64,000 bases of DNA from Spirochaetia bacterium (GCA_965226055.1 CBDDCA010000005.1:32001-96000); one strand, 5' to 3'; shown: positions 22,182 to 60,685, counted from the stretch's first letter. A program made the numbers and translations. Notes: generated from the sequence alone by a model not told the origin.

Positions 22182-25100
22182 TTAATACCATGAGGGCAGT
22201 TTAGTTACTTTAGAATTAGTAAACATGTTAGATTTATCAATATCTTTTCTTATATGACTTCCCCATGCTTCTAAATTTTGTGCAAAATTACTATCCTCAA
22301 ACATCTGAATCATATTAATTACATTACTTACATTCCAATTTGATATATCTCCATTAAATTTATTAGGCTTTTGAGGAAATCCAAAATCTGCATCTGCAGG
22401 TATTCCATTAAACATATTGCCCATATTAGTTACTTTACTCACATCCCATTTTGATATATCTCCATTAAATGCAGAAGCGTTTTGAAACATACTTTTCATA
22501 TTAGTTACTTTACTCACATCCCATTCTGATATATCCCCATTAAATAGGTAAAATCCTTCCTCTGTCTTGAAACTGAAACCTGAGAATAGATAACTCATAT
22601 CTTTAATTTTACTTGTATTGATAAGGTTTAGATCTGCATCTAAATTATCCTTAGCATCTATGGTATCATCGTTGTTAGTATCAATTATGTCTTTAATTGT
22701 CTCTATTAGCTTAGCCCTATTTTCAGGGGTATATTTATGCACTACAGTAATATCAATAGAGACCTCTGCTTTCCTGTTGTCTCGTGCAGTAAATTTTATT
22801 GTATAGGTGGTTTTAGGTTGATATTTCGCTACCCCCGATATTGTGCCATTGCTGGTATTAAATGTAAGTCTAGTATTTTTTGTGATATTGGGAGTAATAG
22901 AAAATGTACCTCCCGTACCTGCACCACTAGGAGTAACTTCCATAACAATAGGAGTAATAGCTGTGCCGCCTTCCTCTTGTGCTGTTGTTGAGAAAGTAGT
23001 CAATATACTGCTGCTTCCTTGTTGCTTTGCTGTCACGTTAATAGATACAAGGGTAGTTACTTCTTCTCTCACTCCTGTAGAGATTTTTATGGCATCCGTT
23101 GCATTGACTGCCCGTACTACTATTTCATAGGTTGTAGTAGGCGTCAGATTACTTATACTTGTACTTGTTGTTCCTTTTGCTACTGCTATTGGACTCTTAT
23201 CTGCTGATATAATCTGTCCTACTGTTCGGACCCTTACTCCATCCTTTGTTACACGATATACTTTGTAGGATACATCTGATTGTGTGAGTTGTGTTCCATC
23301 TGCTTTCTTATGACTATCAGTAAGCATGGGGGCTGTCCACGATATTATTGTACTCGTATCAGCAGGATTTTCTGTAATATTTCTTACTTCTGCTGGGGCG
23401 GTTGCAGGGTTAGCGGTAGTTACTTCTATCTTTACTCCTGTAGAGACTTTTGTGGTATCTGTTGTATTAACTGCTTGTACTACTATTTCATAGGTGGTAG
23501 TAAAAATAAGATTACTTATATTTATGCTAGTTGTTCCTTTTGATACTGCTATCGGATTATTATCTGCTACTATAATCTGTGCTGCTGTTCGAGTGTTTGC
23601 TCCATTCTTTGCTATACGATATACCTTGTAAGATACATCTGCCGTTGTAAGTCCTTGTCCGTTTGCTTTCTTATGACTATCATTAAGCGTGGGGGCTGTC
23701 CATGATATTCTTGCACTCGTATCGGTAATATTTGATACTATAATATTTGTTACTTCCGCTGGGGCGGTTGCTTGATTAGTTGTAAGAGTAGTTACCTCAG
23801 ATCTCTTCCCTGTGGAAACTTTTATGGTATCTGTTGAATTGACTGCCTGTACTACTATTTCATAGGTAGTATTACGAGTAAGATTACTTATATTTGTGTT
23901 TGTTGTTCCTTTTGACACTGCTATTGGACTCTTATCTGCTGCTATAATCTGTGCTGCTGTTCGGGTGTTTGCTCCATTCTTTGCTACACGATATACTTTG
24001 TAGGATACATCTGCCGTTGTGAGTCTTTGTCCGTTTAATTTCTTATGAATGCTTGTAAGCGTGGGGGCTGTCCATGATATTCTTGCACTCGTATCAAGAG
24101 TGTTAGTAGTAATATTTGTTACTTCCGCTGGGGCGGTTGCAGGGTTAGCGGTAGTTACTTCTGCTTTTACTCCTGCAGATATTTTTGTGATATCTGTTGC
24201 ATTGACTGACCGCACTACTATTTCATAGGTTGTACTAAAAATAAGATTACTTATAGTTACATTTGTTGTTCCTTTTGCTACTACTATTGGATTATTATCT
24301 GCTGATATAATCTGTCCTACTGTTCGGGTGTTTGCTCCATTCTTTGCTACACGATATACCTTGTAGGACACATCTGCCACTGTAAGTCCTTGTCCGTTTG
24401 CTTTCTTATGACTATCATTAAGCGTGGGGGCTGCCCACAATACTACTGCACTATTATCGGTAGTACTCGATACTGTAACATTTGTTACTTCTGCTGGGGC
24501 GGTTGCGGGGTTCGTGGTAGTTACTTCTGCTTTTACTCCTGTAGAGACTTTTGTGGTATATGTTGCATTGACTGCTTGTACTACTATCTCATAGGTTGTA
24601 TTACCTATAAGACTACTTATAGTTGTGCTTGTCGTTCCCTTTGTTACTGCTATCGGACTCTTATCTGCTGATATAATCTGTCCTGCTGTTCGGGTGTTTG
24701 CTCCATTCTTTGCTACACGATATACCTTGTAGGACACATCTGCCACTGTAAGTCCTTGTCCGTTTGCTTTCTTATGACTATCATTAAGCGTGGGGGCTGT
24801 CCACGATATTCTTGCACTATTATCGGTAATACTTGATACTGTAACATTTGTTACTTCTGCTGGGGCGGTTGCGGGATTCGTGGTAGTTACTTCTGCTTTT
24901 ACTCCTGTAGAGATTTTTGTGGTATCCGTTGCATTGATTGCCTGTACTGCTATCTCATAGGTTGTATTACCTGTAAGATTACTTATAGTTGTGCTTGTCG
25001 TTCCCTTTGTTACTGCTATCGGACTCTTATCTGCTGATATAATCTGTCCTGCTGTTCGGGTGTTTGCTCCATTCTTTGCTACACGATATACCCTATATGA

Positions 25101-28100
25101 TACATCTGCTGTTGTGAGTGTTTGTCCATTTGCTTTCTTATGACTATCATTAAGCGTAGGGGCTGTCCATGATATTCTTGTACTATTATCGGTAATATTC
25201 GATGCTGTAACATTTGTTACTTCTGCTGGGGCGGTTGCTTGATTAGTGGTAGTTACTTCAGTTCTCATTCCTGTAGAGACTTTTGTAGTATCCGTTGAAT
25301 TGACTGCTTGTACTGCTATTTCATAGGTTGTACTACTTGTAAGATTACTTATAGTTGTACTGGTTGTTCCTTTTGCTACTGCTAACGGGTTCTTATCCAC
25401 TACTATAATCTGTGCTGCTGTTCGAGTGTTTGCTCCATTCTTTGCTACACGATATACCTTGTAAGATACATCTGCCGCCGTAAGTCCTTGTCCGTCTGTT
25501 TTCTTATGACTAGCCCCAAGCGTGGGAGCACTCCATGATATTCTTGCACTATTATCGGTAATACCCCCTACTGTAATATTTGTTACTCCTGCTGGGGCGG
25601 TTGCTTGATTAGTTGTAAGGGTAGTTAGTTCTGCTTTTACTCCTGTAGAGATTTTTGTGGTATCCGTTGAATTGACTGCTCGTACTACTACTTCATAGGT
25701 TGTACTCCCTGTAAGATTAGTTATAGTTGTGCTTGTTGTTCCCTCTGCTACTTCTATCGGGCTAGTATCTGCTGCTACAATCTGTGCTATTGTTCGACTC
25801 GATCCTCCCTTTGCTACACGATATACCTTGTATGATACATCTGATCGTGTGAGTAGTGTTCCGTCTGCTTTCTTATGATTAGCCTCAAGCGTGGGAGCTG
25901 TCCACGATATTCTTGCACTATTATTGGTAATACTTGATGCTGTAACACTGCTTGCATCTGCTGGGGCGGTTGCGGGATTAGTGGTAGTTGCTTCTCTCCT
26001 TACTCCTGTAGAGACTTTTGTGGTATCTGTTGAATTGATTGCCTGTACTACTATTTCATAGGTTGTACTTCCTGTAAGATTACTTATAGTTGTATTTGTT
26101 ATTCCTTTTGTTACTGCTATTGGGGTATTATCTGCTGCTATAATATTTGCTATTGATCGGGTATTTGATCCATTCTTTGCTACATGATATACCTTATACG
26201 ATACATCAGCTGCTGTGAGTCTTTGTCCATTTGCTTTCTTATGACTATCATTAAGCGTAGGGGCTGCCCATGATATTCTTGCACTATTATCGGTAATACT
26301 TGATGCTGTAACACTGCTTGCATCTGCTGGGGCGGTTGCGGGATTAGTGGTAGTTGCTTCTCTCCTTACTCCTGTAGAGACTTTTGTGGTATCTGTTGAA
26401 TTGATTGCCTGTACTACTATTTCATAGGTTGTACTCCCTGCAAGATTACTTATAGTTGTGCTTGTCGTTCCCTTTGCCACTGCTATCGGTGTCCTGTCTG
26501 CTGCTATAATACCTACTACTGTTCGGGTATTTGTTCCATTCTTTGCTATACGATATACCTTATACGATACATCTGAATGTGTGAGTTGTGTTCCATCTGC
26601 TTTCTTATGACTATCATTAAGCGTAGGGGCTGTCCATGATATTCTTGCACTATTATCGGTAATACTTGATGCTGTAACATTGCTTGCATCTGCTGGGGCA
26701 GTTGCTAAAGCTGCTGGGTTAGTGGTAGTTACTTCTGTCTTCGCTCCTGTAGAGATTTTTGTGGTATCTGTTGAATTGATTGCCTGTACTACTATCTCAT
26801 AGGTTGTACTCCCTGTAAGATTAGTTATACTTGCGTATGTTGTTCCTTTTACTACTGCTATCGGACTCTTATCTGCTGCTATAATACTTGCTATTGATCG
26901 AATGTTTGATCCATTTTTTGCTACACGATATACCTTGTACGATACATCTGCCGCTGTGAGTCTTTGTCCGTTTGCTTTCTTGTAACTATCATTAAGTGCG
27001 GGGGCTGACCACAATATTACTGCACTTTTCTCAGTAATATTCAATGCTGTAATACTACGTACATTCGCTGGTGCATTTGCTGGGTTAGTGGTAGTTGCTT
27101 CTATTTTCACTCCTGTAGAGGCTTTTGTAGCATCCGTTGCATTGATTGCCTGTACTACTATTTCATAGGTTGTACTCCCTGTAAGATCACTTATAGTTGT
27201 GCTTGTTGTTCCTTTTGCTACTTCTATTGGACTCTTATCTGCTCCTATAATCTGTGCTACTGTTCGGGTGCTTGATATATTCTTTGCTATACGATATACC
27301 TTGTATGACACATCTGAAGCTGTGAGTGCTTGTCCATTTGCTTTCTTATGACTATCATTAAGCGCAGGGGCTGTCCACAGTATTCTTGCACTATTATCGG
27401 TAATACTTGATGCTGTAATATTTCTTGCTTCTGCTGGGGCGGTTGCGGGGTTAGTGGTAGTTGCTTCTATTTTCACTCCCGTAGAGACTTTTGTAGTATC
27501 CGTTGCATTAACTGCCTGTACTACTATTTCATAGGTTGTACTCCCTGTAAGATCACTTATAGTTGTGCTTGTTGTTCCTTTTGCTACTTCTATCGGGTTA
27601 GTATCTGCTGCTATAATATTTGCTACTAATCGGGTGTTTGCTCCATTCTTTGCTACACGATATATCTTGTACAATATATCTGCTTGTGTTAATTGTGTTC
27701 CATCTGCTTTTTTATGGCTATCATTAAGCGTGGGGGCTACCCACGATATTCCTGCACTATTATCGGTAATACTTGATGCTGTAACACTGCTTGCATCTGC
27801 TGGGGCGGTTGCTTGATTAGTTGTAAGAGTAGTTACTTCAGCTTTCACTCCTGTAGAGACTTTTGTGGTATCCGTTGCATTGATTGCCTGTACTACTATT
27901 TCATAGGTTGTATTACGAGTAAGACTACCTATAGTTGTACTTGTTGTTCCCTTTGCTACTGCTATCGGGTTAGTATCTGCTGCTATAATACTTGCTACTG
28001 TTCGGGTGTCTGCTCCATTCTTTGCTACTCGATATACTTTGTATGATACATCTGATTGTGTTAGTCGTGTTCCATCTGCTTTCTTATGACTATCATTAAG

Positions 28101-29057
28101 CGTGGGGGCTGCCCACGATATTCTTGCACTATTATCGGTAGGACTTTCTGCAATACTACTTACCTCTGCTGGGACTGTTGCTTGATTAGTTGTAAGAGTA
28201 GTTACTTCTATCCTTATCCCTGTAGAGACTTTTGTGTCATCCATTGTATTGATTGCCTGTACTACTATTTCATAAGTTGTATTACGAGTAAGATTACTTA
28301 TATTTATGCTTGTCGTTCCTTTTGCTACTTCTATCGGACTCTTATCTGCTCCTATAATCTGTGCTACTGTTCGGGTGTTTAACCCATTCTTTGTTACACG
28401 ATATACCTTGTATGATACATCTGATTGTGTTAGTTGCGTTCCATCTGCTTTCTTATGGCTATCGTTAAGCGTGGGAGCTACCCACGATATTCTTGCACTA
28501 TTATCGGTAGTACTTTCTGTAACATTGCTTACATCTGCTGGGGCGGTTGCTTGATTAGTTGTAAGAGTAGTTACTTCTATCCTTATCCCTGTAGAGATTT
28601 TTGTGGTATCTGTTGAATTGATTGCCTGTACTACTATTTCATAGGTTGTACTACGAGTAAGATTACTTATAGCTGTGCTTGTCGTTCCCTTTGCCACTGC
28701 TATCGGGTTCTTATCTGCTCCTATAACCTGTGCTACTGATCTGGTATTTGATCCATTCTTTGCTACACGATATACCTTGTATGATATATCTGCCTGTGTT
28801 AGTTGCGTTCCATCTGCCTTCTTATAACTGTTTGTAAGCGTTGGAGCTACCCATGATATCCTTACATTCTTATCGGTAATACTCCCTGCTACAGTATTTA
28901 TTACTTCTGCTGGGACTGTTGCAAGGGATGTAACATTACTACCTCTCCCACTCTCACTACTTAATTTGTTTTCTTCGCAAGAAAAGAAAGCAAATAAAGA
29001 AATAAAAAGAATAATAAAAGAGATATGATTTTTATAAAAATTAAAAAAAGAAAACAT
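22182..29057 (-). CDS. Giant surface lipoprotein (2291 aa): 16 FN3-like repeats, Ig-like neck, DUF285/BspA-like head
   Basis: Lipobox FAFFSC; 16 copies of W.AP.L..SHKK..G..LT..DVSYKVYR...L...TTYEIVVQA.N; C-terminal FNGDISxWDVSKVTNM repeats; AAGGAG Shine-Dalgarno. Confidence 0.9.
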   Translation of the reverse strand: MFSFFNFYKNHISFIILFISLFAFFSCEENKLSSESGRGSNVTSLATVPAEVINTVAGSITDKNVRISWVAPTLTNSYKKADGTQLTQADISYKVYRVAKNGSNTRSVAQVIGADKNPIAVAKGTTSTAISNLTRSTTYEIVVQAINSTDTTKISTGIRIEVTTLTTNQATAPADVSNVTESTTDNSARISWVAPTLNDSHKKADGTQLTQSDVSYKVYRVTKNGLNTRTVAQIIGADKSPIEVAKGTTSINISNLTRNTTYEIVVQAINTMDDTKVSTGIRIEVTTLTTNQATVPAEVSSIAESPTDNSARISWAAPTLNDSHKKADGTRLTQSDVSYKVYRVAKNGADTRTVASIIAADTNPIAVAKGTTSTTIGSLTRNTTYEIVVQAINATDTTKVSTGVKAEVTTLTTNQATAPADASSVTASSITDNSAGISWVAPTLNDSHKKADGTQLTQADILYKIYRVAKNGANTRLVANIIAADTNPIEVAKGTTSTTISDLTGSTTYEIVVQAVNATDTTKVSTGVKIEATTTNPATAPAEARNITASSITDNSARILWTAPALNDSHKKANGQALTASDVSYKVYRIAKNISSTRTVAQIIGADKSPIEVAKGTTSTTISDLTGSTTYEIVVQAINATDATKASTGVKIEATTTNPANAPANVRSITALNITEKSAVILWSAPALNDSYKKANGQRLTAADVSYKVYRVAKNGSNIRSIASIIAADKSPIAVVKGTTYASITNLTGSTTYEIVVQAINSTDTTKISTGAKTEVTTTNPAALATAPADASNVTASSITDNSARISWTAPTLNDSHKKADGTQLTHSDVSYKVYRIAKNGTNTRTVVGIIAADRTPIAVAKGTTSTTISNLAGSTTYEIVVQAINSTDTTKVSTGVRREATTTNPATAPADASSVTASSITDNSARISWAAPTLNDSHKKANGQRLTAADVSYKVYHVAKNGSNTRSIANIIAADNTPIAVTKGITNTTISNLTGSTTYEIVVQAINSTDTTKVSTGVRREATTTNPATAPADASSVTASSITNNSARISWTAPTLEANHKKADGTLLTRSDVSYKVYRVAKGGSSRTIAQIVAADTSPIEVAEGTTSTTITNLTGSTTYEVVVRAVNSTDTTKISTGVKAELTTLTTNQATAPAGVTNITVGGITDNSARISWSAPTLGASHKKTDGQGLTAADVSYKVYRVAKNGANTRTAAQIIVVDKNPLAVAKGTTSTTISNLTSSTTYEIAVQAVNSTDTTKVSTGMRTEVTTTNQATAPAEVTNVTASNITDNSTRISWTAPTLNDSHKKANGQTLTTADVSYRVYRVAKNGANTRTAGQIISADKSPIAVTKGTTSTTISNLTGNTTYEIAVQAINATDTTKISTGVKAEVTTTNPATAPAEVTNVTVSSITDNSARISWTAPTLNDSHKKANGQGLTVADVSYKVYRVAKNGANTRTAGQIISADKSPIAVTKGTTSTTISSLIGNTTYEIVVQAVNATYTTKVSTGVKAEVTTTNPATAPAEVTNVTVSSTTDNSAVVLWAAPTLNDSHKKANGQGLTVADVSYKVYRVAKNGANTRTVGQIISADNNPIVVAKGTTNVTISNLIFSTTYEIVVRSVNATDITKISAGVKAEVTTANPATAPAEVTNITTNTLDTSARISWTAPTLTSIHKKLNGQRLTTADVSYKVYRVAKNGANTRTAAQIIAADKSPIAVSKGTTNTNISNLTRNTTYEIVVQAVNSTDTIKVSTGKRSEVTTLTTNQATAPAEVTNIIVSNITDTSARISWTAPTLNDSHKKANGQGLTTADVSYKVYRIAKNGANTRTAAQIIVADNNPIAVSKGTTSINISNLIFTTTYEIVVQAVNTTDTTKVSTGVKIEVTTANPATAPAEVRNITENPADTSTIISWTAPMLTDSHKKADGTQLTQSDVSYKVYRVTKDGVRVRTVGQIISADKSPIAVAKGTTSTSISNLTPTTTYEIVVRAVNATDAIKISTGVREEVTTLVSINVTAKQQGSSSILTTFSTTAQEEGGTAITPIVMEVTPSGAGTGGTFSITPNITKNTRLTFNTSNGTISGVAKYQPKTTYTIKFTARDNRKAEVSIDITVVHKYTPENRAKLIETIKDIIDTNNDDTIDAKDNLDADLNLINTSKIKDMSYLFSGFSFKTEEGFYLFNGDISEWDVSKVTNMKSMFQNASAFNGDISKWDVSKVTNMGNMFNGIPADADFGFPQKPNKFNGDISNWNVSNVINMIQMFEDSNFAQNLEAWGSHIRKDIDKSNMFTNSKVTKLPSWY
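23050..28922 (-). repeat. Intragenic tandem array of 16 units of about 366 nt
   Basis: Same sequence at 24361 and 24727, and at 25981 and 26347 (both 366 nt apart); 16 YKVYR-type motifs counted. Confidence 0.92.
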
Positions 29058-34203: not shown

Positions 34204-34277
34204 TGGGCCAAACTAGACTTGAACTAGTGACCCCTTCCTTATCAGAGAAGTGCTCTAACCAACTGAGCTACTGGCCC
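34204..34277 (-). tRNA. tRNA-Ile(GAT)
   Basis: GGGCCAGTAGCTCAGTTGGTTAGAGCACTTCT-CTGATAA-GGAAGGGGTCACTAGTTCAAGTCTAGTTTGGCCCA folds into a cloverleaf. Confidence 0.96.
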
Positions 34278-43570: not shown

Positions 43571-46500
43571 CTACGATGAAGAACACGCTGTTTTATCAGC
43601 ACTGTCCTTTGGGTACTGTGCTTTTTTCCTATGCATTGCTGAGCCTTGAAATTCATCATCTGTTAATTGGTGGACTGAAAGTTTACACAATTTCCATGAT
43701 GATAAATCTTGATTAAATGCACTAGCTCCAAAAAACATAAAAACTATAGAAATAGCATTCCCTACATCCCAATTTCCTATATCTTGATCAAAAGCACTTG
43801 CTTGAAAAAACATACTACTCATAGAAGTAACACTGCTCACATCCCAATCTCCTATATCTTGATTAAATTTACTTGCTCCATTAAACATACTATTCATAAG
43901 AATAACACTACTTACATCCCAATCTCCTATATCTTGATCAAAAGCACTTGCTTGAAAAAATAGACCTACCATATTCGTTACATTACTGGTATTCCACTGT
44001 GTTATGTCTCCATTAAAAGTACTGTCTTTATCAAACAATTGTCGCATATTATCAATAGCACTGGTATCTATCATATTGAGGTTAGGGCTAGGGTTACTAC
44101 TCTTCCCTCCTGTAGCTTGCCTTGTTTTTTCTTCTCTGATAATAGTTTGTAGTGCTGATTTTGTTGTTGGTCTGTAATAGGTAGCTGCTTTTCCTGATGG
44201 TGCTGTTCTTAGCTCTGTTTGTATAACAATAGTCGCTGGTACTTTTTTCTTTGAAGCGGTAAGGGTACACTGTGCTACATTATAGCTATACTCAGTAATA
44301 TTAGGGTCACGTATATTGGACTTATTTGCTATGCCTGTTATGGTAACTGTTTTGCTACTCTGTTCAAACGATACTGCTAGCCCTGTCTCTTTTTTGATTT
44401 TCTCTGCATCTGCCTCTTGTATATTGGCATCACAGGTAAAGGCATTGCCACTGGGTGTGCTTGCTAATACTCTTGTAGTATTTGATGCGAGTGCTGTGCC
44501 TACTGTTGCTGAAACTATGCTAGTGTTTCCTATAGATATTGCACTTACTTCAAATTCATGGCGTTCTCCTGTTGATGCTTTTGTAGGATCGGTGCTGTTT
44601 ACTGCTTGTACTACTATTTCGTAGGTCGTTCCGTTTGTCAATCCTGTCAGGGTAGTGTTGGTTGTTCCTGCTGCTACTGTTGTGGGGCTTGAGTCTGCTT
44701 GTTTTATTGCTGCTACATTTCTTGCACTGCCACCTTTGGCTACTTTGTATACTTTGTACGATACCTGTGCTACTGTTAGGGTATCGCCTGTATTTGCTTT
44801 GTGGCTTGCACTGAGGCTGGGGGCTGTCCATGATACTCTCATACCGCCTGTTTGGGCTACTCTTGTTTGTATGCTTGTTACTTCTGCAGGGGCAGTCGCT
44901 TGCGATGCGGTCGTTACGCTTGCCACTGACGATGCTACTTTTTTGCTTGGGTCTGTTTTTACTGCTACCTCTACCACAAAGTAATACTTTGTCGCTCCTT
45001 TTACTGCTACTACTGGTGCTGTGTCTGATGACAAACCTAAACTGGCAAGGGCTGGTACTGTGTACACTCCGCTTGTTGCACTGCCTATGTTTACCTTTCT
45101 GCCTGCAAGTACCTCTGCTACTGTAGGGTTAGTGTCTTTCTGTAAGCCATACACTGTGTATACTAGCTTGTCATTTGCTATTATGTTTGTACCATCGTAG
45201 TCTTTCGCTCCTGTAAATGTGCTTAGCTCGGTAAGTACCAGCTTTATTGTGCCTGTAGTATTTGTTGACGGTGATACTACCAGCTTTCCTGTGAGTAATG
45301 ACTGGCTGGGTGCTACTGCTTTGGAAGTATAGATTTCTTTTATTTCTGTTACATCGGTGTAAAAGCCTGCAGGAAAGAGCTTGTCGCTATTTGTTGCATC
45401 GTAATTGGGGGATGTCGTGTTTACTATCCTTACTCCTATGTAGTAATCTTTTGCTGTTTCTATGGGCGTTGCTCCTGCATTGCTTCCACTGGTGCTGTCT
45501 ACTATTGCTATGGATATTGTGTCTTGAGTTGTTCCTGTTGCTTTTGTGTATTTTGCTACTCTCGTACTGCTCTTTTCTGTTGCCCATAGTGCTGATACGC
45601 TGGCAGGCTTTCCTGTGGTATCTTCTTTCTTGAGATATAGCACATAGTACGCAAGGTCTGTCGCTTCAAGGGCATTGCCATTTGCTTTGCTCACTCCTGC
45701 TATTGCTGAGGCATTGAGCTGTGCTGTTATGACTTTTTTCCCTCTGTTGCTTCCTGTTGTAGGCACTGCAAATACCACTGCATTACTGTTAGTGTAGGTT
45801 GTTACTTTTGGTGTGCTTGGGGGAGCGGTAAGCGTTGCTTTCTTTATTGTTACTGATGCTCCTATGCTATAGGCAGGATTGAGGCTGTTTATTGCTTCTA
45901 CTCCTGCGGTATAGTCTGCTCCTTTTGTTCCTATAAATGTTGCTTTTAATGGAGTGCTGTTTCCTGCTAGCTCTCTTGTTTGTACTCCTGCAAGGGCTTT
46001 TATTTCGTCTAGTGTTTTTGTGCTGTGGTCTCCTGCTGCTATGTATACTTTGTATTGTATTTGTGCCTGTGTGAGTTTGCTTCCGCTGGGTGCTTTGTTG
46101 GTATCAGTAATGTCTCCTGCACTAAATGTATAGACTGCTTTTGCAGTTGTTTGGGTTACTGACTCTACGGAGAGCTTTGCATCTTTGGGAGCGGGCGGTG
46201 CTGTCGAGGTGCTATCGTATACTGCTACTGCATCACTCAGTGCGGTTACGGGACTTACTCTGTTATTTGCTATTTGCAGAAAATCAAAGCGATAATTCTT
46301 GGCATTTGCTTGGCTCTTAGGTACTTCTAAGCCATCTGCTATCCCAAAGCTAATGGTGATTGCTGTGTTTGTTATGCTTTTTTCTGCTACCAGTGTAGCT
46401 CCATCTTTCATACGCAGGGTGTAGTATCGCCCTATGCCAGGAGCATTCTTAAAAATTGCTTTTATCTGCACTGCTCCTGTTGTATCTAATGTAGGCTTGC

Positions 46501-48336
46501 TTTGAAAGAGATCTTCTGAGGGAGCTGTGAGTGAGTTGGGGGTGGTTATGTCTTTTGTTGCTTGGCTACTTTTGTTTTCTGAGTAATCAAGCGTGAGTAT
46601 TGTTATGGTATATGTTTTGCCTTGCACAAGTTCTTCTACAGAGAGTGCTATCGTGGGATAGGGTATTTTCTTCTCGCTCAGTACTGCAGTGCTTGTGCCT
46701 TTTTCTGCTATGCTTATGCTGTATTCTTTTATGTCTTTGTTGTTGGCTTTTGTTGTATCGGGGGCTGTCCATGTTATCTGTGTGCCTATCTTTGCTGCTG
46801 ATACAAAGGGATAGCTTGCTTGTATGTTTGTCACTGCATCGGGGGCGGTGCTGTCTGCTGATGTGCTGACTGTGGCTGTTGCTTCTGTTCCTTTGTTGCC
46901 TGCACTGTCTATTGATACGACTGCCACTGTATACTCGGTGGTTGCTTTGAGGCCTGGTATCTGTGTATTGCGTACTGTTCTCTCTGTTATTGTCACTGTC
47001 TTTGCTGGAGAACTGCTGTCTTTTTCTGTTGCTGTTATAGTCACTCCTGCGTAGTCTCTTACATCGGGGGCTTGCCAGCCTACTACTAGGCTTGTTGCTC
47101 CTCCTACGGCACTCACATTGCTTACAGGTTCTGTGCTTTTGTCTGTTGTTGCTTGTTCTTTTGACACTGCAGTGGAATACTTTCCGTTTTGAGAAACATA
47201 CACCTCTACTTTGTAAGTAAGCGTGCCATAGAGTTTTGTGAGTGCTATGCCATCTTTTGCCACATACACAGTGGCGTATTCTCTGTTGTCTGCACTTGCT
47301 CCGCTGACATTGGTTGCACTTGTATCTTTATCTATTGTCTCTTCTGCTACTACTGTATTTGTTGCGGTTGCTATCACTCGTACTTGCAGGCTTTTTTCTG
47401 TACTTCCTGTTCCAAAGTCAAAACTCCCCCACTTAATAAGCAGGCTTTCATCGGCTGGACTATTGCTTTTATCGTTTGCTGTTACTGTAAGATCTGCCTC
47501 TGGCAGTGGCGTTACTGTTTGTGAGAGTGCTGATGGCACTATGCCTCTGAGTGCTTGCTTTGCCGTGCTTTTGTTACCGTTGCTATCTTTGTACACTACT
47601 ACTATATCATAGCTGATGCCGTCTATAGTAGGGACTGCAATGCTTACCTCTCCTTGTGTTACATCTTGTACTGTTACTTCTGTCTTTACCCCAGTAGTTC
47701 TTTCTATCACCTGTATTGTGGCTTCTGCTATGTCTGTCTTACCTGACGAGAGCAGTACTTTGTCCCATGTTAGCTTTATGCCATTTGTTGCCTGTTCTAC
47801 CGCTACCTGTGTAAAGGTGTCCTGTGGTGCAGTTTCATCTGTCAGTGTTGTCACAGAGCGTGTTGTTTTTGGTGATACTTCTGAGTTTGATTTTTGTGCT
47901 TCTATCTCTACCGTATAATCGGTAGTAGCGTGCAAGCCTCTGAGTGTGTAGGGTCTGTTTTGTTGAAACAATGCACGATATTCTATTGCAGGAACACGCA
48001 CTTGTATGGACTGTGCTGGTGCGGTAGATGTAGCTTTTACGACTACATGCGTGGCATCACTGGGAGCTTGCCAGCGTAACGAGAGCGTCCCATCGTTGCT
48101 TGCTGGTTCTATCTGCACATTGGACACTGATGCGAGTGTCGGGGTTACTGGCGTTCCCCCTCCGCCTGAGGAACTGCTACTACCCTCTGCACATCCTACG
48201 AGTACGAGGATAGTTATTGCTAGCACTGCTAGTATAGTTAGGTTTTGCTTATATCGAGAGTGTACCCCCCCCCCCCCCCGATTTTCAGGCTCTGTAGCTC
48301 CTTGCTTTTGTAGCTATCATTCATCAATACTTTCAT
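43571..48336 (-). CDS. Surface lipoprotein paralog A (FN3-like stalk plus DUF285/BspA-like head), frameshifted at a G15 tract in the signal peptide
   Basis: Open frame 43571-48226 with lipobox VLVGC. The AAGGAG-preceded ATG at 48336 runs through G15 into TAA; G13 or G16 would restore the frame. Confidence 0.85.
48265..48279 (-). repeat. Poly-G (G15) homopolymer, putative phase-variation tract
   Basis: 15 consecutive C on the + strand inside the 5' coding region of paralog A. Confidence 0.85.
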
Positions 48337-48481: not shown

Positions 48482-51400
48482 CTATGATGTACATGCTGGA
48501 TCACCTTTACCTTTTGGATACTTGCTTGTTTTTCCTGCCATAGCTGAATTGTCAAACATAATGCTACTTATTGTTCCTTTACACATTTTCCATGATGATA
48601 AATTTTGATCAAATTTAGAAGCATTATAAAACATAGCAAAATTACGTTCAACATTCCCTACATCCCAATTTCCTATATCTTGATTAAAAGCATCTGTGCC
48701 TTTAAACATAGTATTTGTATTCTTTACATTGCTCATATTCCAATTTCCTATGTCTTGATTAAAAGCAGTAGCACTATCAAACATTGAAAACATATTAGTA
48801 ACCTTGCCTACATCCCAATTTCCTATGTCTTGATTAAAATTATTTGTGCTTTTAAACATAGATTGCATATCCTCTACATTACTAGTATTCCACTGTGTTA
48901 TGTCTCCATTAAAAGTACTATCTCTATTAAATAAACTATTCATACTAGTAATAGCACTGGTATCTATCATATTGAGATCAGGGCTAGGGTTGTTGTTCCC
49001 TCCTGAACCTTGCCTTGTCTTTTCTTCACTGATAATAGTTTGGAGCTTTGCCTTTGTTATTGGTCTGTAATAGGCTTCCGCTTTTCCTGATGGTGCTGCT
49101 TTTAGCACTGTCTTTATAATGATAGTAGCTGGTATTTTTGAAGAACCAACTGAACACTGTACTACATTATAGCTATATTCAGTAATGGCAATGTCATGTA
49201 TATTAGATTTATTTGCTATGCCTGTTACGGTAACTGTGTTAGTATTTTTTGAAAACGATACTGCTAATCCTGTTTCTTCTTTGATTCTCTTTGCATCTGC
49301 TTCCAGTATGGTGGCATCACAGGTAAAGGAAACGCTACTGGTCAGTATTCTCGTAGTATTTATTGCTTGTTTATTGCCTACTTCTGCTGAAACTACCATA
49401 GTATTTTCTATAATCACTGTTCTTGCTTCAAACTCATGGCGTTGTCCTGCTGATATTTTTGTGTCATCGGTGCTGTTTACTGCTTGTACGACTATTTCAT
49501 AGATCTTTCTGTTAGTCAATCCTGTCAAAGTAGTACTTGTTGTTCCTACCGCTATTGTTGTAGGACTTGAGTCTGCATTTTTTATCTGTGTTACTGTCCT
49601 CTGTATATCACCACTCTTGGCTACTTTGTATATCTTGTACGATACCTGTGCTGCTGTTAAGGTGTCTCCTGTATCTGTTTTGCGGCTTGCACTGAGGCTG
49701 GGAACTGCCCAAAATACTTTCATGCCTGTTTGGGCTACTCTTGTTTGTATGCTCCTTACTTCTGTTGGAGCAGTTGCTTGAGATGCAGTTGTTACGCTTG
49801 CCACTGATGAAGATGCTACTTTTTTGCTTGGATCTGTTTTTATGGCTACTTTTACCACAAAGTGATACTTTGTCGCTCCTTTTATTGCTATTATTGGATC
49901 TGTATCTAAAGACAAACCTAAACTGGCAAGGGCTGGTACTGTGTACACTCCGCTTGTTGCACTGCCTATGTTTACCTTTCTGCCTGCAAGCACTTCTGCT
50001 ACTGTCGGAGTAGTGTCCTGCTGTAGTCCATACACTGTGTATACAAGCTGATTACTTGCTGTTATGTTTGTTCCATCGTAGTTCTTTGCTCCCGTAAATG
50101 TGCTTAGCTCGGTGAGTGCTAGCTTTATTGTTCCTGTTGTGCTTGTTGATTGTGATACTACTAGCTTTCCTGCTAGTAGTGACTGATCAGGGGCTACTGC
50201 GTTTGAAGTATACACTTCTTTTATTTCTGCTACATCGGTGTAAAAGCCTGTAGGAAAGAGCTTGTCGATATTTGATGCATCATAATTGGGGGATGTCGTG
50301 TTGACTACTCTCACTCCTATGTAGTAATCCTTTGCTGTTTCTATAGGGGTTGCTCCTGCATTGCCTGCACTGGTACTGTCTACTATTGGTATTTGTATGA
50401 TCGCTTGATTTGCCACTCCTGTTGCTTTTGTGTACTTTGCTACTTTTCCACAGCTCTTTCCTACTGCCCACAAAGCTGATACACCAGCAGGCTTTTGATT
50501 TATATACTCTTTCTTGAGATACAACACATAGTATGCAAGATCAGTTGCTTCAAGGGCATTGCCATCTACTTTGCTTACTCCTGCTATGGCTGAGGCATTT
50601 ACTTGTACTGTTATGACTTTTTTTCCACTATTGCTTCCTGCCGTAGGCACTGCAAATACTACTGCATTATTGCTAATGTATGTTAGTTCTTTTGGTGCTG
50701 TGGAGGGAGTGGTAAGTGTTACTGTTTTTATTGTTGCTGATGATCCTGCTATGCTATACGAGGGATTGAGGCTATTTATCGCTTCTACTCCTGCGGTATA
50801 GCTTGTATCCTTCTTGCCTATAAATCTTACTTGTAAGGCACTGTCTCCTGCTATGTCTCTTGTTTGTACTCCTGCAAGGGCTTTTATTGCATCTAGTGTC
50901 TTTTTGCTATGATCTCCCTCTGCTATGTATACTTTATATTGTATTTGTGTCTGTTTGAGTTTACTTCCATTGGGAGCTTTGTTAGTATCAGTAATGTCGC
51001 CTGCATTAAACATATAGATTGCTGTTGCGGTTGTCTTTTTTTCTGACTTTACAGAGAGTATTGCATCCTTGGGGGCTGGTGGTGCTGTTGAGGTACTATC
51101 GTATACTGCTACGGTATCAGCAAGAGTGGTTATAGGACTAACTATATTATTTGCTATTATCAAAAATGTAAAGCGATAATTCTTGGTATTTGCTTGGCTC
51201 TTGGGTACTTCTACACCATCTGCTATACCAAATATAATATCTTTTGTGCCTCCTGTTGTGCTCTTTTCTGATACCAGTGTTGTGCTATCGTACATACGCA
51301 GGATGTAATATCGTCCTATGCCAGGAGCAGTCTTAAAGGTTGCCTTTATTTGCACTGCTCCCGTTGTATCAAGAGCAGGCCTGTTTTGAAAGAGATCTTC

Positions 51401-53227
51401 TGAGGGAGCTGTAGGTTGCGGAGTAGTTATGTCTTGTGTGGCTTGGGTGCTTTTATTTCCTGCGTAATCAAGGGTGAGTATTGTTATGGTATAGCTCTTG
51501 CCTTGCTTGAGTTCTTCTACAGAGAGTAATGTTATAGGGAAAGCTACTTTTTTCTCATTTACCACTGTAGTGTCTATGCCTTTCTCTGCTATGCTTATAC
51601 TATATTCTTTTATGTCTTTGTTATTGACTTTTGTCCCATCAGGCTCTGTCCATGTTATCTGCACTCCTACTTTTGTTACCGATATAAAGAGATAGCTTAC
51701 TTGTATATTTGTTACTGCATCGGGAGCTGTGCTATCGTCTGCGGTGGCTACTGTGGCATTTTCTGCTGTTCCTTTGTTGCCTGCCCTGTCCATTGATACT
51801 ACTGCCACTGTGTACTCGGTGTTAGCTTTTAGCCCTGTTATCTGCGTATTTCTTAGTGCTCGATCTGTTATTGTTACTGTCTTTGCTGCCGTGCTACTGT
51901 TCTTTTCTGTTACAGCTATACTCACTCCTGCATAATCTCGTACATCGGGGGCTTGCCAGCCTACTACTATGCTTGTTGCTCCTCCTACGGCACTTACATT
52001 GCTTACAGGCTCTGTGCTTTTGTCTGTTGTTGCTTGTTCTTTTGACACTGCAGTGGAGTACTTTCCGTTTTGAGAGACATATACTTCTACTTTGTATGTA
52101 AGCGTGCCATAGAGTTTTGTGAGTGCTATGCCATCTTTTGCTACATACACAGTGGCGTATTCTTTGTTTTGTGCAGCTGCAGAGTCTAGTCCTGCAGTAC
52201 TGCCATTACTTATAATTTCCTCTGCTATGAGGGTATTTGTTGCAGTTGCTATGATGCGTACTTGTAGATTTTTTCCTGTACTAAAGTCAAATCTATTATT
52301 TCTATCATCCCACCTAATAAGCAGACTTTCATCGGCCGGGCTATTGCTTTTATCGTTTGCTGTTACTGTAAGGTCTGATGCAGAAAGTGGCGCTACTGTC
52401 TGTGAGAGTGCTGATGGCACTATGCCTCTGAGTGCTTGCTTTGCTGTACTTTTGTTACCGTTGCTATCTTTGTATACTACTGCGACATCATAGCTAATGC
52501 CGTCTATGGTGGGGACTGCAATACTCACCTCTCCTTGTGTTACATCTTGTACCGATACTTCTGTCACTCCACGAGTGGTACTTTCTATCACCTGTACTAT
52601 GGCTTCTGCTATGTCTGTCTTGCCTGACGAGAGCAATGCTTTGTCCCATGTTAGCTTTATGCCATTGCTTGCCTGTTCTACTGCTACCTGTGTAAAGGTG
52701 TCCTGCGGTGCAGTTTCATCGCTAAGTGTTGTTACAGAGCGTGTTATTTTTGGTGATACTTCTGTGTCTGAGCCTGAGTCTGATTTTTGGGCTTCTATCT
52801 CTACAGTATAATCAGTAGTAGCAAGCAAGCCTCTGAGTACATAAGGTCTGTTTTGTTGAAACAATGCACGATATTCTATTGCAGGAACATGCACTGATAT
52901 TGATTGCGATGGCACTGTTGATATAGCAGTTACGACTACATGCGTAGCATCACTGGGAGCTTGCCAGCGTAACGAGAGCATCCCGTCATCGCCTGCCGCT
53001 TGTATCTGCACATTGGACACTGATGCAAGTGTCGGTATTACTGGTGGAGTTATCTCTCCTGATGAGGAACTACTACTGCTTTCTGCACATCCTAGCATGA
53101 AGAAAGTAATTACTACTAGCATCCATGCTAGTGCAACTATAGTTATATTCTGCCTATATTGAGGTTTATCTCCCATACCCCGATTTTTTTTCACACTTTG
53201 TAATTCCTTATCCATCCATTTTTTCAT
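48482..53227 (-). CDS. Surface lipoprotein paralog B (FN3-like stalk plus DUF285/BspA-like head)
   Basis: Likely start MKKWMDK at 53227 after AAGGAGG (ORF extends to 53272); lipobox FMLGC; collinear with paralog A; FNQDIGNWDV repeats. Confidence 0.9.
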   Translation of the reverse strand: MKKWMDKELQSVKKNRGMGDKPQYRQNITIVALAWMLVVITFFMLGCAESSSSSSSGEITPPVIPTLASVSNVQIQAAGDDGMLSLRWQAPSDATHVVVTAISTVPSQSISVHVPAIEYRALFQQNRPYVLRGLLATTDYTVEIEAQKSDSGSDTEVSPKITRSVTTLSDETAPQDTFTQVAVEQASNGIKLTWDKALLSSGKTDIAEAIVQVIESTTRGVTEVSVQDVTQGEVSIAVPTIDGISYDVAVVYKDSNGNKSTAKQALRGIVPSALSQTVAPLSASDLTVTANDKSNSPADESLLIRWDDRNNRFDFSTGKNLQVRIIATATNTLIAEEIISNGSTAGLDSAAAQNKEYATVYVAKDGIALTKLYGTLTYKVEVYVSQNGKYSTAVSKEQATTDKSTEPVSNVSAVGGATSIVVGWQAPDVRDYAGVSIAVTEKNSSTAAKTVTITDRALRNTQITGLKANTEYTVAVVSMDRAGNKGTAENATVATADDSTAPDAVTNIQVSYLFISVTKVGVQITWTEPDGTKVNNKDIKEYSISIAEKGIDTTVVNEKKVAFPITLLSVEELKQGKSYTITILTLDYAGNKSTQATQDITTPQPTAPSEDLFQNRPALDTTGAVQIKATFKTAPGIGRYYILRMYDSTTLVSEKSTTGGTKDIIFGIADGVEVPKSQANTKNYRFTFLIIANNIVSPITTLADTVAVYDSTSTAPPAPKDAILSVKSEKKTTATAIYMFNAGDITDTNKAPNGSKLKQTQIQYKVYIAEGDHSKKTLDAIKALAGVQTRDIAGDSALQVRFIGKKDTSYTAGVEAINSLNPSYSIAGSSATIKTVTLTTPSTAPKELTYISNNAVVFAVPTAGSNSGKKVITVQVNASAIAGVSKVDGNALEATDLAYYVLYLKKEYINQKPAGVSALWAVGKSCGKVAKYTKATGVANQAIIQIPIVDSTSAGNAGATPIETAKDYYIGVRVVNTTSPNYDASNIDKLFPTGFYTDVAEIKEVYTSNAVAPDQSLLAGKLVVSQSTSTTGTIKLALTELSTFTGAKNYDGTNITASNQLVYTVYGLQQDTTPTVAEVLAGRKVNIGSATSGVYTVPALASLGLSLDTDPIIAIKGATKYHFVVKVAIKTDPSKKVASSSVASVTTASQATAPTEVRSIQTRVAQTGMKVFWAVPSLSASRKTDTGDTLTAAQVSYKIYKVAKSGDIQRTVTQIKNADSSPTTIAVGTTSTTLTGLTNRKIYEIVVQAVNSTDDTKISAGQRHEFEARTVIIENTMVVSAEVGNKQAINTTRILTSSVSFTCDATILEADAKRIKEETGLAVSFSKNTNTVTVTGIANKSNIHDIAITEYSYNVVQCSVGSSKIPATIIIKTVLKAAPSGKAEAYYRPITKAKLQTIISEEKTRQGSGGNNNPSPDLNMIDTSAITSMNSLFNRDSTFNGDITQWNTSNVEDMQSMFKSTNNFNQDIGNWDVGKVTNMFSMFDSATAFNQDIGNWNMSNVKNTNTMFKGTDAFNQDIGNWDVGNVERNFAMFYNASKFDQNLSSWKMCKGTISSIMFDNSAMAGKTSKYPKGKGDPACTS

Positions 53228-56667: not shown

Positions 56668-56740
56668 TGAGCCGCGCAGGATTTGAACCTGCGACCACCG
56701 CCTTAAAAGGGCGTTGCTCTACCAGCTGAGCTAGCGGCCC
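56668..56740 (-). tRNA. tRNA-Lys(TTT)
   Basis: GGGCCGCTAGCTCAGCTGGTAGAGCAACGCC-CTTTTAA-GGCGGTGGTCGCAGGTTCAAATCCTGCGCGGCTCA. Confidence 0.96.
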
Positions 56741-56743: not shown

Positions 56744-56815
56744 CATCTCCTAGGGGAGTTGAACCCCTGTTGCAAGAATGAAAATCTTGAGTCCTAACCA
56801 CTAGACGAAGGAGAC
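56744..56815 (-). tRNA. tRNA-Glu(TTC)
   Basis: GTCTCCTTCGTCTAGTGGTTAGGACTCAAGA-TTTTCAT-TCTTGCAACAGGGGTTCAACTCCCCTAGGAGATG. Confidence 0.96.
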
Positions 56816-57250: not shown

Positions 57251-57251
57251 G

Positions 57252-57329: not shown

Positions 57330-57336
57330 AATATAC

Positions 57337-57370
57337 AATAAGAGTGTTTCTTATAAGAAACACTCTTATT
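57337..57370. terminator. Perfect 34-bp palindrome downstream of lipoprotein D
   Basis: AATAAGAGTGTTTCTTA|TAAGAAACACTCTTATT. Confidence 0.6.
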
Positions 57371-57391
57371 ATTTATATCAAATAATATTGA

Positions 57392-60300
57392 TTATTGAAA
57401 GGTAGGGTATGTATTTCTTTTTCCTTCCATTGGAATACTTACAAAACTATTTTCTAAGAATTTAATATGTATATGACCATATAAAGGTTTATCAATTCCT
57501 GTATTCCAACTTACGTCTTTTCCATAACTTTTTTCAAATACTGTTTTATTGATTCTCCATTTACTAAGATCTTGATCAAATTTTTGAGAATTTTTGAACA
57601 TAAATTTCATAAATCTTATGGAAGAAATATTCCAACCTGATATATCTTGATTAAATTGTTCGGTATCTTCAAACATAGATGTCATATTGTAAACTTTAGA
57701 AGTATCCCAATTGGATATATCTTGATTAAAATTAGTAGCATTTTTAAACATCTGGTCCATATCATTTACTCTAGAAGTATCCCAATTGGATATATTTCCA
57801 TTAAAAGAACTTGCTTCTTCAAACATACCTCCCATATCATTTACTTTAGAAGTATCCCAATTGGATAAATCTCTATTGAATTTTGTTGAACGCATGAACA
57901 TAAACTTCATATTGGTTACTTTAGAGGTATTCCAATTAGATACATTAGGGTTATAATCTTTATTAACAAATAATTTAGACATATCAACTACTTCACTAGT
58001 ATCTACTAATCTTAAATTTTCTACTTCTTTATCTTTTTCTAATAATTCAATTACTCGTAATAATTCTTTATTACTAGTAGGCCTATAGAAGGTTGCACTT
58101 CTACCACCGACTTTTACTAGTTTAGTATTTACATTCACAGTCAAATCCTTTGTTACATTCCAATTTGGTATAGTAAATCTTATTTTACCATATTTCCTAT
58201 TAGTTATTTTAGAATCATAAAAATTACTTTTATTAACAATTCCTGTTATATGAACAGTATTATTACTAAAAGATGCTGTTAATCCTGTATCATGTTTTAA
58301 TCTATCTAAATCAGCTTTATCGAATGTAAATGATGAATTTAAGCTAACTCTCTTATTATTACTTCTTGTCCACTGTTGATTACCATTAACTATTCTTTTT
58401 TCTAAAACAGTAGCACCTATAATTAATTTTTTATTAACAGAATCTCCAACATTAAAATTAGCTCTTGCTATGTTGAGATCATAATCTATAACTAACTTCC
58501 AAGTTTCAAAATGTTGTGTTTTTCCATTTGAAACTTTTGTTTTATCAGTTTCATTAACTGAAGTTATTGCTATAGCATATGATGTTTCTGCATATACATC
58601 ATCTAAAAGATGTTTTTTAGTATTTGCAGGTATATTTATAGCTACTCCTTCATTTTTAATTCTGTCTAAATCATAATCATAACCGAATTCATCATCATCA
58701 AGTTTTTTAACATATAAAATATATGAAATTTCTGATATAGATAATATATCTCCGTCATTATTTTTATGAATTTCACTATCTATTGTTGGATAATCCCATA
58801 TCATATTGATACCACTAGATATGAATTTAAATGAAAAATTGCTTACTTCTGGAGGAATTTTTGTAGTGTTATCTATGGTACCACATATGGGGCTTCCTTT
58901 AAAATTAGGTCTCTTATTTTTTGGTATATATAAATCATCTGCATAAACATCTTTAATTCTCACATGAAAATCACTATCTGTAAGTGTTATTCTACACATA
59001 TTCCATGATGAAAAATCATGATCATAGAAATATAATCCACTGTATAGAATTCTATTTGCTTTTAAAACATTATTTGTATTCCAATTTTCAACACCATGTA
59101 TAAAAGCTCCACTTTGTAAATTTACTTGAGAAAATAGTTCTGTCATATCAGTTACATTAGAAGTATCCCAGTTTGATAAATCACTTTTAAACCTAGTTAC
59201 TCCATAAAATGTACTATTCATATTAGTAACATTTGAAGTATTCCATTTTGAAATATCTCCACTAAATTCATATATTTTATTAGTATTTTTATCTTTAAAA
59301 TCATATACATCTTTACTTAATTTTGAACTAAATAAATTACTAAAACTTTTTACATTACTTGTATCTATTATGTTTAAATCAGCAGATATTCCTTGAATGT
59401 CTATTTCTTGAGTAATATCAGCTATTAACTCACTGCTGTCAAGAGGAATATGTTTATATCCTATTATCAGATCTATAGTTTTACTAACTGTTCTGTTATC
59501 TTCTGATGTAAATCCTATGGTATATCTTCTGTTTCCCATTTTTGTAGCAATACCAGAAATAGAACCATCCAATTTATTAAATGTTAATCCAAATGTTTTA
59601 GATAAATCATCGGGACTAATAGAAAAAGTTCCTCTATCGGTATTAATACTTTCTGGTAATATTATGGATTCTATTTTAGTTATTTTCTCTTTTCCATAAT
59701 TACCTTGGGATACTAATCTTTTTTCAGTTATAAATATATCAGAATTTTCTTCTCTAAATTGTAATGAAATAGGTTCATCTGTATTAAATTCAAAAAGTTG
59801 ACTATTTGTAACCTTTGATACATCTGTATTATTTACAGATTGTAATACTATATTATAAGTTGTATTTGGCATTAAACCTGTTATAGTTATTCCTTCTTGT
59901 TGTGCTTTTAAAACTATCGGATTTCTATCAGATATTATAACTGCATCTACATCATTATTTTCTATCTTGTTTTCCTTTAATTTATATACTTTGTATATAA
60001 TATTTTGCTTAGTTAATTGGTTTTCTTCATTATCTAAATGAGTATCATCAAAAGGAAGCAATGCTCCTCTCCATTGTAATGATATAGATGTTTCAGTAGA
60101 GTTAGTTTTTAGTATTTTATTATTATTAAAACCAGGAGGATTAGTTGCTTTACTCCCTAAGGATATTGATTTAATATTACTATAAGTAATCTTACTCATA
60201 TCTGTTTTAATTTGAACTGAAAACATAAAATGATATGTTTTTTGTTCTTCAAAATTCACTCCATCTATTTCAGTTTCATTTATGTATTCTAATTTTCCAT

Positions 60301-60685
60301 TTTTAAAATTAATGATAGTATGTTTTTTTATCATTTCATTTAATTCTGGGACTATTGATGATTCTTTGACATATAATTTATATACCAATTGATCATTACT
60401 CGTTATATTTGTTCCATCTCTATTTTTCATATTAGTATATTTTTCTAAAGAATATACTGTTAGATTTATCGTTTCTATATTTACTCCTTTACCAAGAGAA
60501 ATTTTATTCAATAATAAAGAAGGATCAGCAGCTACCGATAGGGATATATCACCACCACCTCCATTCCCTCCCCCATTATTAGAAGATAGGTTGCTAGAAC
60601 TTTTATTTTTTTCACAATTAATTAAAGTCATACTTACTGGTGTTAATATTATTATTAACATTAAAAACATTACATTTTTTTTCAT
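57392..60685 (-). CDS. AT-rich surface lipoprotein D with two FN3-like / Ig-like / DUF285 modules
   Basis: ATG 60685 follows AAGGAG; lipobox TLINC; two blocks of WNTSNVTNM / WDTSKV repeats, each preceded by an FN3-like unit. Confidence 0.88.
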   Translation of the reverse strand: MKKNVMFLMLIIILTPVSMTLINCEKNKSSSNLSSNNGGGNGGGGDISLSVAADPSLLLNKISLGKGVNIETINLTVYSLEKYTNMKNRDGTNITSNDQLVYKLYVKESSIVPELNEMIKKHTIINFKNGKLEYINETEIDGVNFEEQKTYHFMFSVQIKTDMSKITYSNIKSISLGSKATNPPGFNNNKILKTNSTETSISLQWRGALLPFDDTHLDNEENQLTKQNIIYKVYKLKENKIENNDVDAVIISDRNPIVLKAQQEGITITGLMPNTTYNIVLQSVNNTDVSKVTNSQLFEFNTDEPISLQFREENSDIFITEKRLVSQGNYGKEKITKIESIILPESINTDRGTFSISPDDLSKTFGLTFNKLDGSISGIATKMGNRRYTIGFTSEDNRTVSKTIDLIIGYKHIPLDSSELIADITQEIDIQGISADLNIIDTSNVKSFSNLFSSKLSKDVYDFKDKNTNKIYEFSGDISKWNTSNVTNMNSTFYGVTRFKSDLSNWDTSNVTDMTELFSQVNLQSGAFIHGVENWNTNNVLKANRILYSGLYFYDHDFSSWNMCRITLTDSDFHVRIKDVYADDLYIPKNKRPNFKGSPICGTIDNTTKIPPEVSNFSFKFISSGINMIWDYPTIDSEIHKNNDGDILSISEISYILYVKKLDDDEFGYDYDLDRIKNEGVAINIPANTKKHLLDDVYAETSYAIAITSVNETDKTKVSNGKTQHFETWKLVIDYDLNIARANFNVGDSVNKKLIIGATVLEKRIVNGNQQWTRSNNKRVSLNSSFTFDKADLDRLKHDTGLTASFSNNTVHITGIVNKSNFYDSKITNRKYGKIRFTIPNWNVTKDLTVNVNTKLVKVGGRSATFYRPTSNKELLRVIELLEKDKEVENLRLVDTSEVVDMSKLFVNKDYNPNVSNWNTSKVTNMKFMFMRSTKFNRDLSNWDTSKVNDMGGMFEEASSFNGNISNWDTSRVNDMDQMFKNATNFNQDISNWDTSKVYNMTSMFEDTEQFNQDISGWNISSIRFMKFMFKNSQKFDQDLSKWRINKTVFEKSYGKDVSWNTGIDKPLYGHIHIKFLENSFVSIPMEGKRNTYPTFQ

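Follow-up and report, generated by a model that had tools for sequence, protein, structure and literature searches.

In the Vmm and Vmc systems of Mycoplasma and at loci of Campylobacter and Helicobacter, many surface genes are turned on and off in combination by simple repeats, and homopolymer tracts of the Campylobacter/Helicobacter type are present in restriction-modification and surface-glycan genes as well. In tprK and in vlsE of Borrelia, donor cassettes are converted into one expression site. Closer to the genes treated here are the PARCEL/DUF285 lipoproteins of Mollicutes (LppQ/LppC of the M. mycoides cluster and drp of M. agalactiae), with which they have the PARCEL repeat in common. 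According to the accessible parts of PMC2996958, mycoplasma PARCEL lipoproteins that have homopolymers at the 5' end and poly-G in the coding region are phase-variable; the accessible text of PMC2824730 describes drp as 12-13 scattered genes in rearranged regions, for which its authors judged phase variation unlikely. For the tpr family of Treponema pallidum the length of poly-G tracts is described to vary in vivo and to alter expression (PMC7864442, accessible part). Here we analyse a family of putative surface lipoproteins that is represented by four genes (g1 to g4) in a 64,000-nt stretch of DNA, called the window in the following, from a Spirochaetia bacterium (GCA_965226055.1 CBDDCA010000005.1:32001-96000).

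We read this family as a contingency-gene repertoire of surface lipoproteins, recombining and slippage-switched, and assign this reading a probability of about 0.72. It is a surface-variation strategy of a known kind, here at unusual scale. The family works like the PARCEL, drp and tpr systems and is PARCEL by its repeat, but it belongs neither to the Mbov_0838 and BspA LRR_5 (leucine-rich repeat, LRR) families nor to the diversity-generating retroelement (DGR) or single-expression-site systems. In contrast to the Mollicutes proteins a long FN3-type stalk, a neck and caps bear the repeats at the tip, and the 12-13 drp genes compare with 86 open reading frames (ORFs) here; the words "fibronectin" and "gene conversion" are absent from the main text of PMC2996958. 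The tpr genes are likewise a spirochaete paralogue family with poly-G; however, they encode putative outer-membrane porins and have promoter tracts (PMC7864442, accessible part), whereas the lipoproteins encoded here are stalked and the tracts of their genes are poly-G in the coding region or poly-T at the promoter. The protein domains of Mycoplasma Vlp/Vmm/Vmc and of the Campylobacter/Helicobacter systems differ from those of the family, and the fast change in repeat number of the Vlp type is unseen at g1. BspA/TpLRR proteins (LRR_5, PF13306) and internalin-type LRR adhesins resemble the head in fold only. Generic proteins of other bacteria carry fn3 and DUF285 in one chain (P0046, P0097, P0106), but their FN3 is ordinary, without the inserted loop, and gives no full-length match to the unit. 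The initial annotation had supposed that the architecture was undescribed in spirochaetes. No account of a stalked, genome-wide recombining PARCEL form was found in the literature searched, most subscription papers and bioRxiv supplements being outside its reach; PARCEL repeats as such, however, are already listed for Brachyspira in the supplement of PMC2996958, as far as accessible.

The features of the window are:

22182..29057, minus strand: g1, a 2291-residue lipoprotein with 16 looped FN3-type units, a type-1 neck and a single PARCEL/DUF285 head
23046..28916, minus strand: 16-unit stalk of g1, units of about 119-123 residues with a mutual identity of 58-90%
22185..22742, minus strand: head of g1, cap and PARCEL repeats
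43571..48336, minus strand: g2, of the g2-type class (40 copies), with subtype A body, C-terminal unit, type-2 neck and head; out of frame as assembled
48265..48279, minus strand: G15 tract of g2 in the signal-peptide n-region, candidate translational on/off switch, OFF in the assembly
44537..44893, minus strand: C-terminal looped unit of g2, predicted by the model to have an FN3 fold
43574..44191, minus strand: head of g2 with helical cap, 25-residue PARCEL repeats and a C-terminal cap that contains two Cys; modelled as an LRR-like solenoid
48482..53227, minus strand: g3, an in-frame g2-type gene whose tract site holds an interrupted G4 remnant only
57392..60685, minus strand: g4, a 1097-residue lipoprotein with two unit-neck-head modules

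Parts and size of the family

Re-calling of ORFs returned the four minus-strand genes at the spans of the initial annotation, in total 19,682 nt. They sit among housekeeping genes, as had been said, but none of these is interrupted. The frame of g3 reaches 53272 (ATG at 53227, linked to a ribosome-binding site, RBS) and that of g4 60703 (ATG at 60685); the open frame of g2 covers 43571-48226, and in the assembled sequence the frame read from the ATG at 48336 runs into a stop after 32 codons. The parts claimed to be common to the four genes, i.e. lipobox and tether, looped FN3 unit, neck, cap and DUF285 repeats, were recovered by profiles and by sequence inspection, the lipobox Cys and the Ser/Gly tether by eye and by pattern. 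The Pfam scan matched fn3 and DUF285 in all four proteins, PF03382 with 145-237 bits, fn3 in g4 with 22.9 bits and thus below the cut-off of 25. PARCEL-type models were matched in the NCBIfam scan, among them the Mbov_0838 family (NF045896) with 56.6-168 bits over the repeats only, compared to the 500 required for the whole protein. The repeats themselves are those of PARCEL/DUF285: tandem units of 25 residues, each unique, with conserved hydrophobic and variable hydrophilic positions. The earlier label "BspA-like" was loose, as there is no PF13306 LRR_5 match in g1-g4 at E<=0.1, though the head is predicted to fold LRR-like. The cap motif YxP...L...I is accompanied by LNxIDTS, with the variants LNLINTS and LRLVDTS, and HIP in the first head of g4.

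The necks fall into two types by score, g1 scoring 136 with the first neck of g4 and g2/g3 scoring 117-139 with its second neck, against 27-39 across types; that both types are shared across genes points to an old mix-and-match. The count of 16 units in the stalk of g1 stood, while the count of one or two understates the stalks of g2 and g3. These proteins of about 1,550-1,580 residues each contain a strong looped unit (150-152 bits) and a weak one (21-22 bits), preceded by a long FN3-containing body, which adds about 1,100 residues with four Pfam fn3 stretches each.

The source genome (G000) comprises 2.25 Mb in six contigs with about 35% GC, is 89% complete and carries three FlaA matches. 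The genome scan with module profiles which the initial annotation had called for, built from g1-g4 and run at chosen thresholds, found 86 family ORFs in it, i.e. 362,751 nt or 16.1% of the genome. These split into 44 with the g2 body, 26 heads only, nine with unit and head, six with units only and one other. A sister species of the same genus (G001, 93% complete), the housekeeping DNA of which is about 95% identical, has the same repertoire with about 44 g2-type genes, one of which was left out of the comparison. Variation through a single expression site, as in vlsE or tprK, was rejected: the g2-type copies are complete genes scattered over the genome, and 80 of the 81 examined have their own RBS-linked start, although short headless and head-only ORFs, which may be donors, also exist.

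DUF285 is present in all five other genomes of the same taxonomic family (86-143 matches in four, one in the fifth), and the looped FN3 unit was found in three of 401 genomes of the class (E<=1e-8). In the third of these (G008; L013 1-3021) the unit is repeated in tandem, a PEBP-like domain is inserted, and the genome lacks a DUF285 match; P0006 likewise joins the looped unit to a PEBP-like domain without DUF285. Homologues of the g2 body number 75, all on contigs matching G000 or G001 or on two other contigs; of the three on the latter, two bear Kelch tips. A pattern-based scan of genome contigs returned 58 loci from a single record and missed G008, so that the range is not bounded by it. No relative of the family was found in the metagenome contig search, and the Atlas search, with low recognition, gave generic FN3 clusters alone.

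The majority of family genes in G000 is oriented along the GC-skew strand. Assembly breaks at the C3 end, the C4 start, both ends of C5 and the C6 start lie inside family genes or at their tracts. The window itself has an empty site at 11725-11761, where G001 (1310802-1315679, L029) carries an additional unit-stalk gene and a separate neck/head gene between uvrA and a CPA2 antiporter gene.

Module trees and exchange among copies

Trees and alignments were based on 70 of the 84 g2-type copies of both species, those of full length (1370-1700 residues; 35 per species). The nearest stalk neighbour of a copy is a paralogue of the same species in 31-35 of 35 copies per window of the alignment (23/24, 13/13 and 34/34 where fewer could be scored), and the best stalk identity across species is 84-93%, compared to 94-97% in most flanks. 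Species labels change three to four times on the trees of body, unit and neck, nine times on that of the cap and 24 times on that of the repeats, about 23.5 changes being obtained with shuffled labels. Any two module trees have no more than 0-2 supported splits in common, whereas odd and even codons within one module, taken as control, agree at 0.58-0.92 (0.12 in the repeats). Site incompatibility climbs from 0.24 to 0.66 with distance, with none of 200 permutations as low, and along the copies nearest neighbours switch every 100-300 codons or less. Congruence of the module trees had been named beforehand as a possible refutation of a recombining repertoire; the trees came out incongruent. Mosaic paralogues together with incongruent module trees characterise a recombining multigene surface family, and the g2-type copies appear to form one.

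Comparison of single loci between the two species gives the same picture. For each module, no more than 1-4 of 15 pairs have the syntenic partner as the top-ranking match, and the head best-matches the partner indicated by the downstream flank in 4 of 19 pairs (five copies without the cap pattern left out), while the 150 nt after the stop do so in 15 of 19. The switch type agrees in 8 of 18 syntenic pairs. At the g2/g3 locus G001 has a single gene, whose body is of subtype B, whose G16 tract is in frame and whose head is 86% like that of g2; there is no second copy at this place. In the ortholog of g4 the first approximately 700 residues are kept and the distal head is different. In some copies of G001 the upstream flank is that of one G000 copy and the downstream flank that of another; G1:1989439 and G1:2045575 form a reciprocal pair of this kind. 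Head variation and a recombining repertoire, both claimed initially, are thus borne out by replaced heads and 5' cassettes, conflicting trees and stalks homogenised within species. Stalk length as a fast-varying trait is not: by position the g1 ortholog in G001, our single-locus control, has 16 units as well, 14 of them best-matching in position, so a fast change in stalk length at g1 is ruled out between the two species.

We propose that ectopic homologous recombination and gene conversion among some 40 dispersed copies would homogenise the stalks within a species, and that recombination would also put other heads and 5' cassettes into a locus and at times rearrange the chromosome. A joint from g3 to g2 (48670 to 43925) is present in one contig of run X1 at a depth of 2.55, both of its 75-nt sides being unique in G000; this is a weak hint, since an error or a paralogue missing from the assembly could account for it. 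An apparent deletion of one repeat in the head of g3, seen in three runs, proved to be the paralogue at C3:120155.

Two stretches of G001 (1337208-1339380 and 1359162-1365038; L030-L032) hold further differences: behind the NAD kinase gene there are two additional ORFs, one of which is methyltransferase-like by eye, and transposase-like ORFs flank the g4 ortholog on both sides, where the synteny of the window ends. The Rfam scan of the window matched three tRNA genes and nothing else (34204-34277, 56668-56740 and 56744-56815), the latter two just downstream of g4.

Homopolymer tracts as candidate switches

Runs of G or C in G000 number 105, 19 and 4 at 6, 7 and 8 nt, yet there are 32 of 9-20 nt; this excess over the trend of the short runs means more than chance. 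The 29 A/T runs of 13-30 nt are also set off from the short-run background. Family 5' ends hold 23 of the 32 long G/C runs, and 25 of the 29 A/T runs (>=13 nt) are no more than 500 nt away from a 5' end or start of the family. Among the 40 g2-type copies of G000, 17 have G9-16, 19 have T14-27 only and four have neither. In frame are four of the 17 poly-G copies, compared to all 22 tract-less copies for which an RBS was found. In G001 35 of 41 scored copies have a G tract, eight of them in frame with one doubtful call. These counts omit three of 84 rows (a pseudogene, an internal duplicate and one unparsed start), and single ON/OFF calls may be wrong through homopolymer errors. Apart from one exception per genome (481 and 716 residues), the scored copies keep downstream frames of 1,400-2,600 residues.

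By analogy with established cases, slipped-strand changes would randomly switch most g2-type copies, poly-G in the signal-peptide coding region turning translation on or off and poly-T just upstream of the promoter setting the level; the tracts and the frames are directly seen. A long 5' or promoter homopolymer ahead of an intact gene, the mark of a contingency gene, is found in g2 and in 36 of the 40 g2-type copies. The ON/OFF poly-G of the initial annotation holds for g2, which is frameshifted at G15, but inspection of the four window genes revealed no long homopolymer near the start of g1, g3 or g4. Also, g3 resembles its paralogues less than g2 does. Of the four, g3 looks locked on, g2 a typical switchable member, and g1 and g4 slower single-locus members.

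The remaining nine of the 32 G/C tracts belong to other genes, for which the family assignment was checked for one of each pair. Four dispersed hsdS genes (type I; C1:12274-13413, C3:95198-96370, C4:27664-28851 and C6:662369-663514; L127-L130) each have a C14-20 tract at the 5' end and are candidates for switchable methylation specificities. A type III mod gene followed by res (C6:564249-568911; L131, L132) contains G15 near its 3' end, is out of frame as assembled and is a candidate phasevarion. Two HtrL/YibB-like paralogues (C6:300338-303372; L133, L134) that contain tracts of G13 and G14 close to the 3' end adjoin a GT11 glycosyltransferase gene, a candidate for switchable surface glycosylation. 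Finally, a G14 tract precedes each of two near-identical Big_5/Kelch lipoprotein genes of 2,020 residues (C5:638169-644231, L135; C6:715728-721811). Genes of these kinds are typical contingency genes.

That homopolymer errors produced the frameshifts and misassembly across repeats the mosaics is very improbable and already largely refuted. Both genomes are metagenome assemblies, and several contig ends of G000 lie in or at family genes. Errors, however, can alter individual ON/OFF calls without being able to create the tracts, which occupy one homologous position in both genomes; the neighbour changes along the copies are finer than misjoins on the scale of reads; and the contigs listed for runs X1, X2 and X4, which may include the source sample, match unique pieces of g3 and the flanks with 0 differences.

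Heads, their variable positions and the weight of the evidence

The 234 exact 25-residue repeats of the 70 copies are all distinct. Positions W1, V6, F13, A16, F19 and Q21 are near fixed, W1, F13 and F19 nearly invariant, and positions 8, 10, 11, 14 and 15 are hypervariable (3.1-3.7 bits), with the proportion of nonsynonymous differences (pN) above that of synonymous ones (pS). The model of the g2 head (predicted local distance difference test score 91.6) has a strand ladder that passes through repeat position 8. Its top structural matches (VIA) are LRR proteins with Z 9-10, TpLRR 6mlx being tied with others (Z 10.1, root-mean-square deviation 3.4, 159 aligned, 7% identity); the head gave no match to PDB sequences, and the Foldseek search of the model none at E<=0.001. 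We take the modelled head to be an LRR-like solenoid, at a middling Z, probably with a single variable face. The model of the C-terminal unit of g2 compares with fibronectin 3t1w (Z 11.8, root-mean-square deviation 2.9, 93 aligned), as expected for an FN3 beta-sandwich. An origin of the tip diversity from a DGR was rejected, because no PF00078 reverse transcriptase match was found in G000 (89% complete) or G001 (93%) and there is no adenine bias, diversity being alike at consensus A, G and C positions.

Taken together, a lipid-anchored chain of FN3/Ig-type domains would hold out an LRR-like PARCEL tip, the variable stripe of which may bind a partner; profiles and models support the domains and folds of the chain, and surface exposure and binding are what we infer. 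Selection would keep the tips different and so offer varied contact surfaces, presumably toward host, predator or phage. Alternatively the tips could be decoys without a ligand of their own, their variation serving to evade host pattern receptors or the receptor-binding proteins of phages. That every tip is unique while the stalk is homogenised agrees with this, and the phase-variable-type tracts in the four hsdS genes and the type III mod gene are consistent with phage pressure. Since the LRR-like fold varies mainly at five positions around its strand ladder, as binding surfaces do, and the same stalk bears Kelch or PEBP-like tips, both binding folds, in other lineages, we consider a pure decoy role unlikely; adhesion and decoy roles are not mutually exclusive. 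A more specific but doubtful idea is a bacterial analogue of LRR-based variable receptors, in which in-register short-patch recombination between repeats would build new tips on a standard stalk and two slippage switches would pick the tips displayed. It is hinted at by the unique repeats, by an old pool of repeats common to both species, by 12 matches at >=96% within a species compared to two across, and by the low-depth in-register g2-g3 contig.

Several observations weigh against a repertoire that recombines and switches. Over the whole repeat pN is below pS (0.31 versus 0.45, pooled over saturated and not strictly homologous units), and the repeat alignment carries little tree signal, as its odd/even control indicates. 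For the neighbour of g2 in G001, the g2 head has remained the best match (86% versus a median of 70%), and the stalk of g1 is fixed, with 16 units in either species. In counts biased to family neighbourhoods by the 40 chosen regions in which G001 was covered, synteny is broken in 11 of 40 adjacencies across family genes versus 8 of 19 others, and the enrichment was graded modest; an IS-like (insertion sequence) repeat occurs in two of these 11 and four of these 8 breaks, and both genomes could be misjoined across repeats. The 99%-identical strain X5 retains the tail of g2 with point changes only (three in 141 nt and three in 166 nt); its cover of g3 at 50998-51654 is low, from which absence cannot be concluded. 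The evidence on switching comes from contigs, which list no indel at the g2 tract and no tract-length variant within a population, and 42 of the 86 ORFs, g1, g3 and g4 among them, have no tract. The best match of a repeat is in the same species in 103 and in the other species in 106 of 234 cases, with 25 ties. Because repeat variants are thus shared across species as often as within, and because X5 keeps the g2 tail, the tip diversity seems to be old and reshuffled rather than rapidly minted, and the head retained in the G001 neighbour implies that heads turn over slowly.

Part of these observations would fit a diversified, mostly constitutive adhesin or S-layer-like coat, expanded for ligands or dosage, with recombination as a by-product and tracts that rarely switch. 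Stable orthologs of g1 and g4 without tracts, the many other tract-less ORFs, the tail kept in X5 and stalks under purifying selection (dN/dS, the ratio of nonsynonymous to synonymous rates, 0.21-0.41 in G000) all agree with such a coat. Yet most G-tract genes (13 of 17 in G000, 27 of 35 in G001) are frameshifted, and long downstream frames are nevertheless kept apart from the one exception per genome, tract lengths spread over 9-18 nt, and restriction-modification genes bear the same tracts. We therefore regard a constitutive coat as improbable, if somewhat less so than decoys alone, and prefer the contingency-gene repertoire.

In this repertoire one modular family takes about a sixth of a 2.2-Mb genome in an uncultured spirochaete lineage, to which repeat-switched, recombining surface repertoires are thereby extended. 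The Kelch or PEBP-like tips on the same stalk in other lineages suggest a reusable display chassis. With a uniform stalk, dozens of unique LRR-like tips and five variable positions, the family may serve as a natural library for questions about the ligands of PARCEL/DUF285 proteins.

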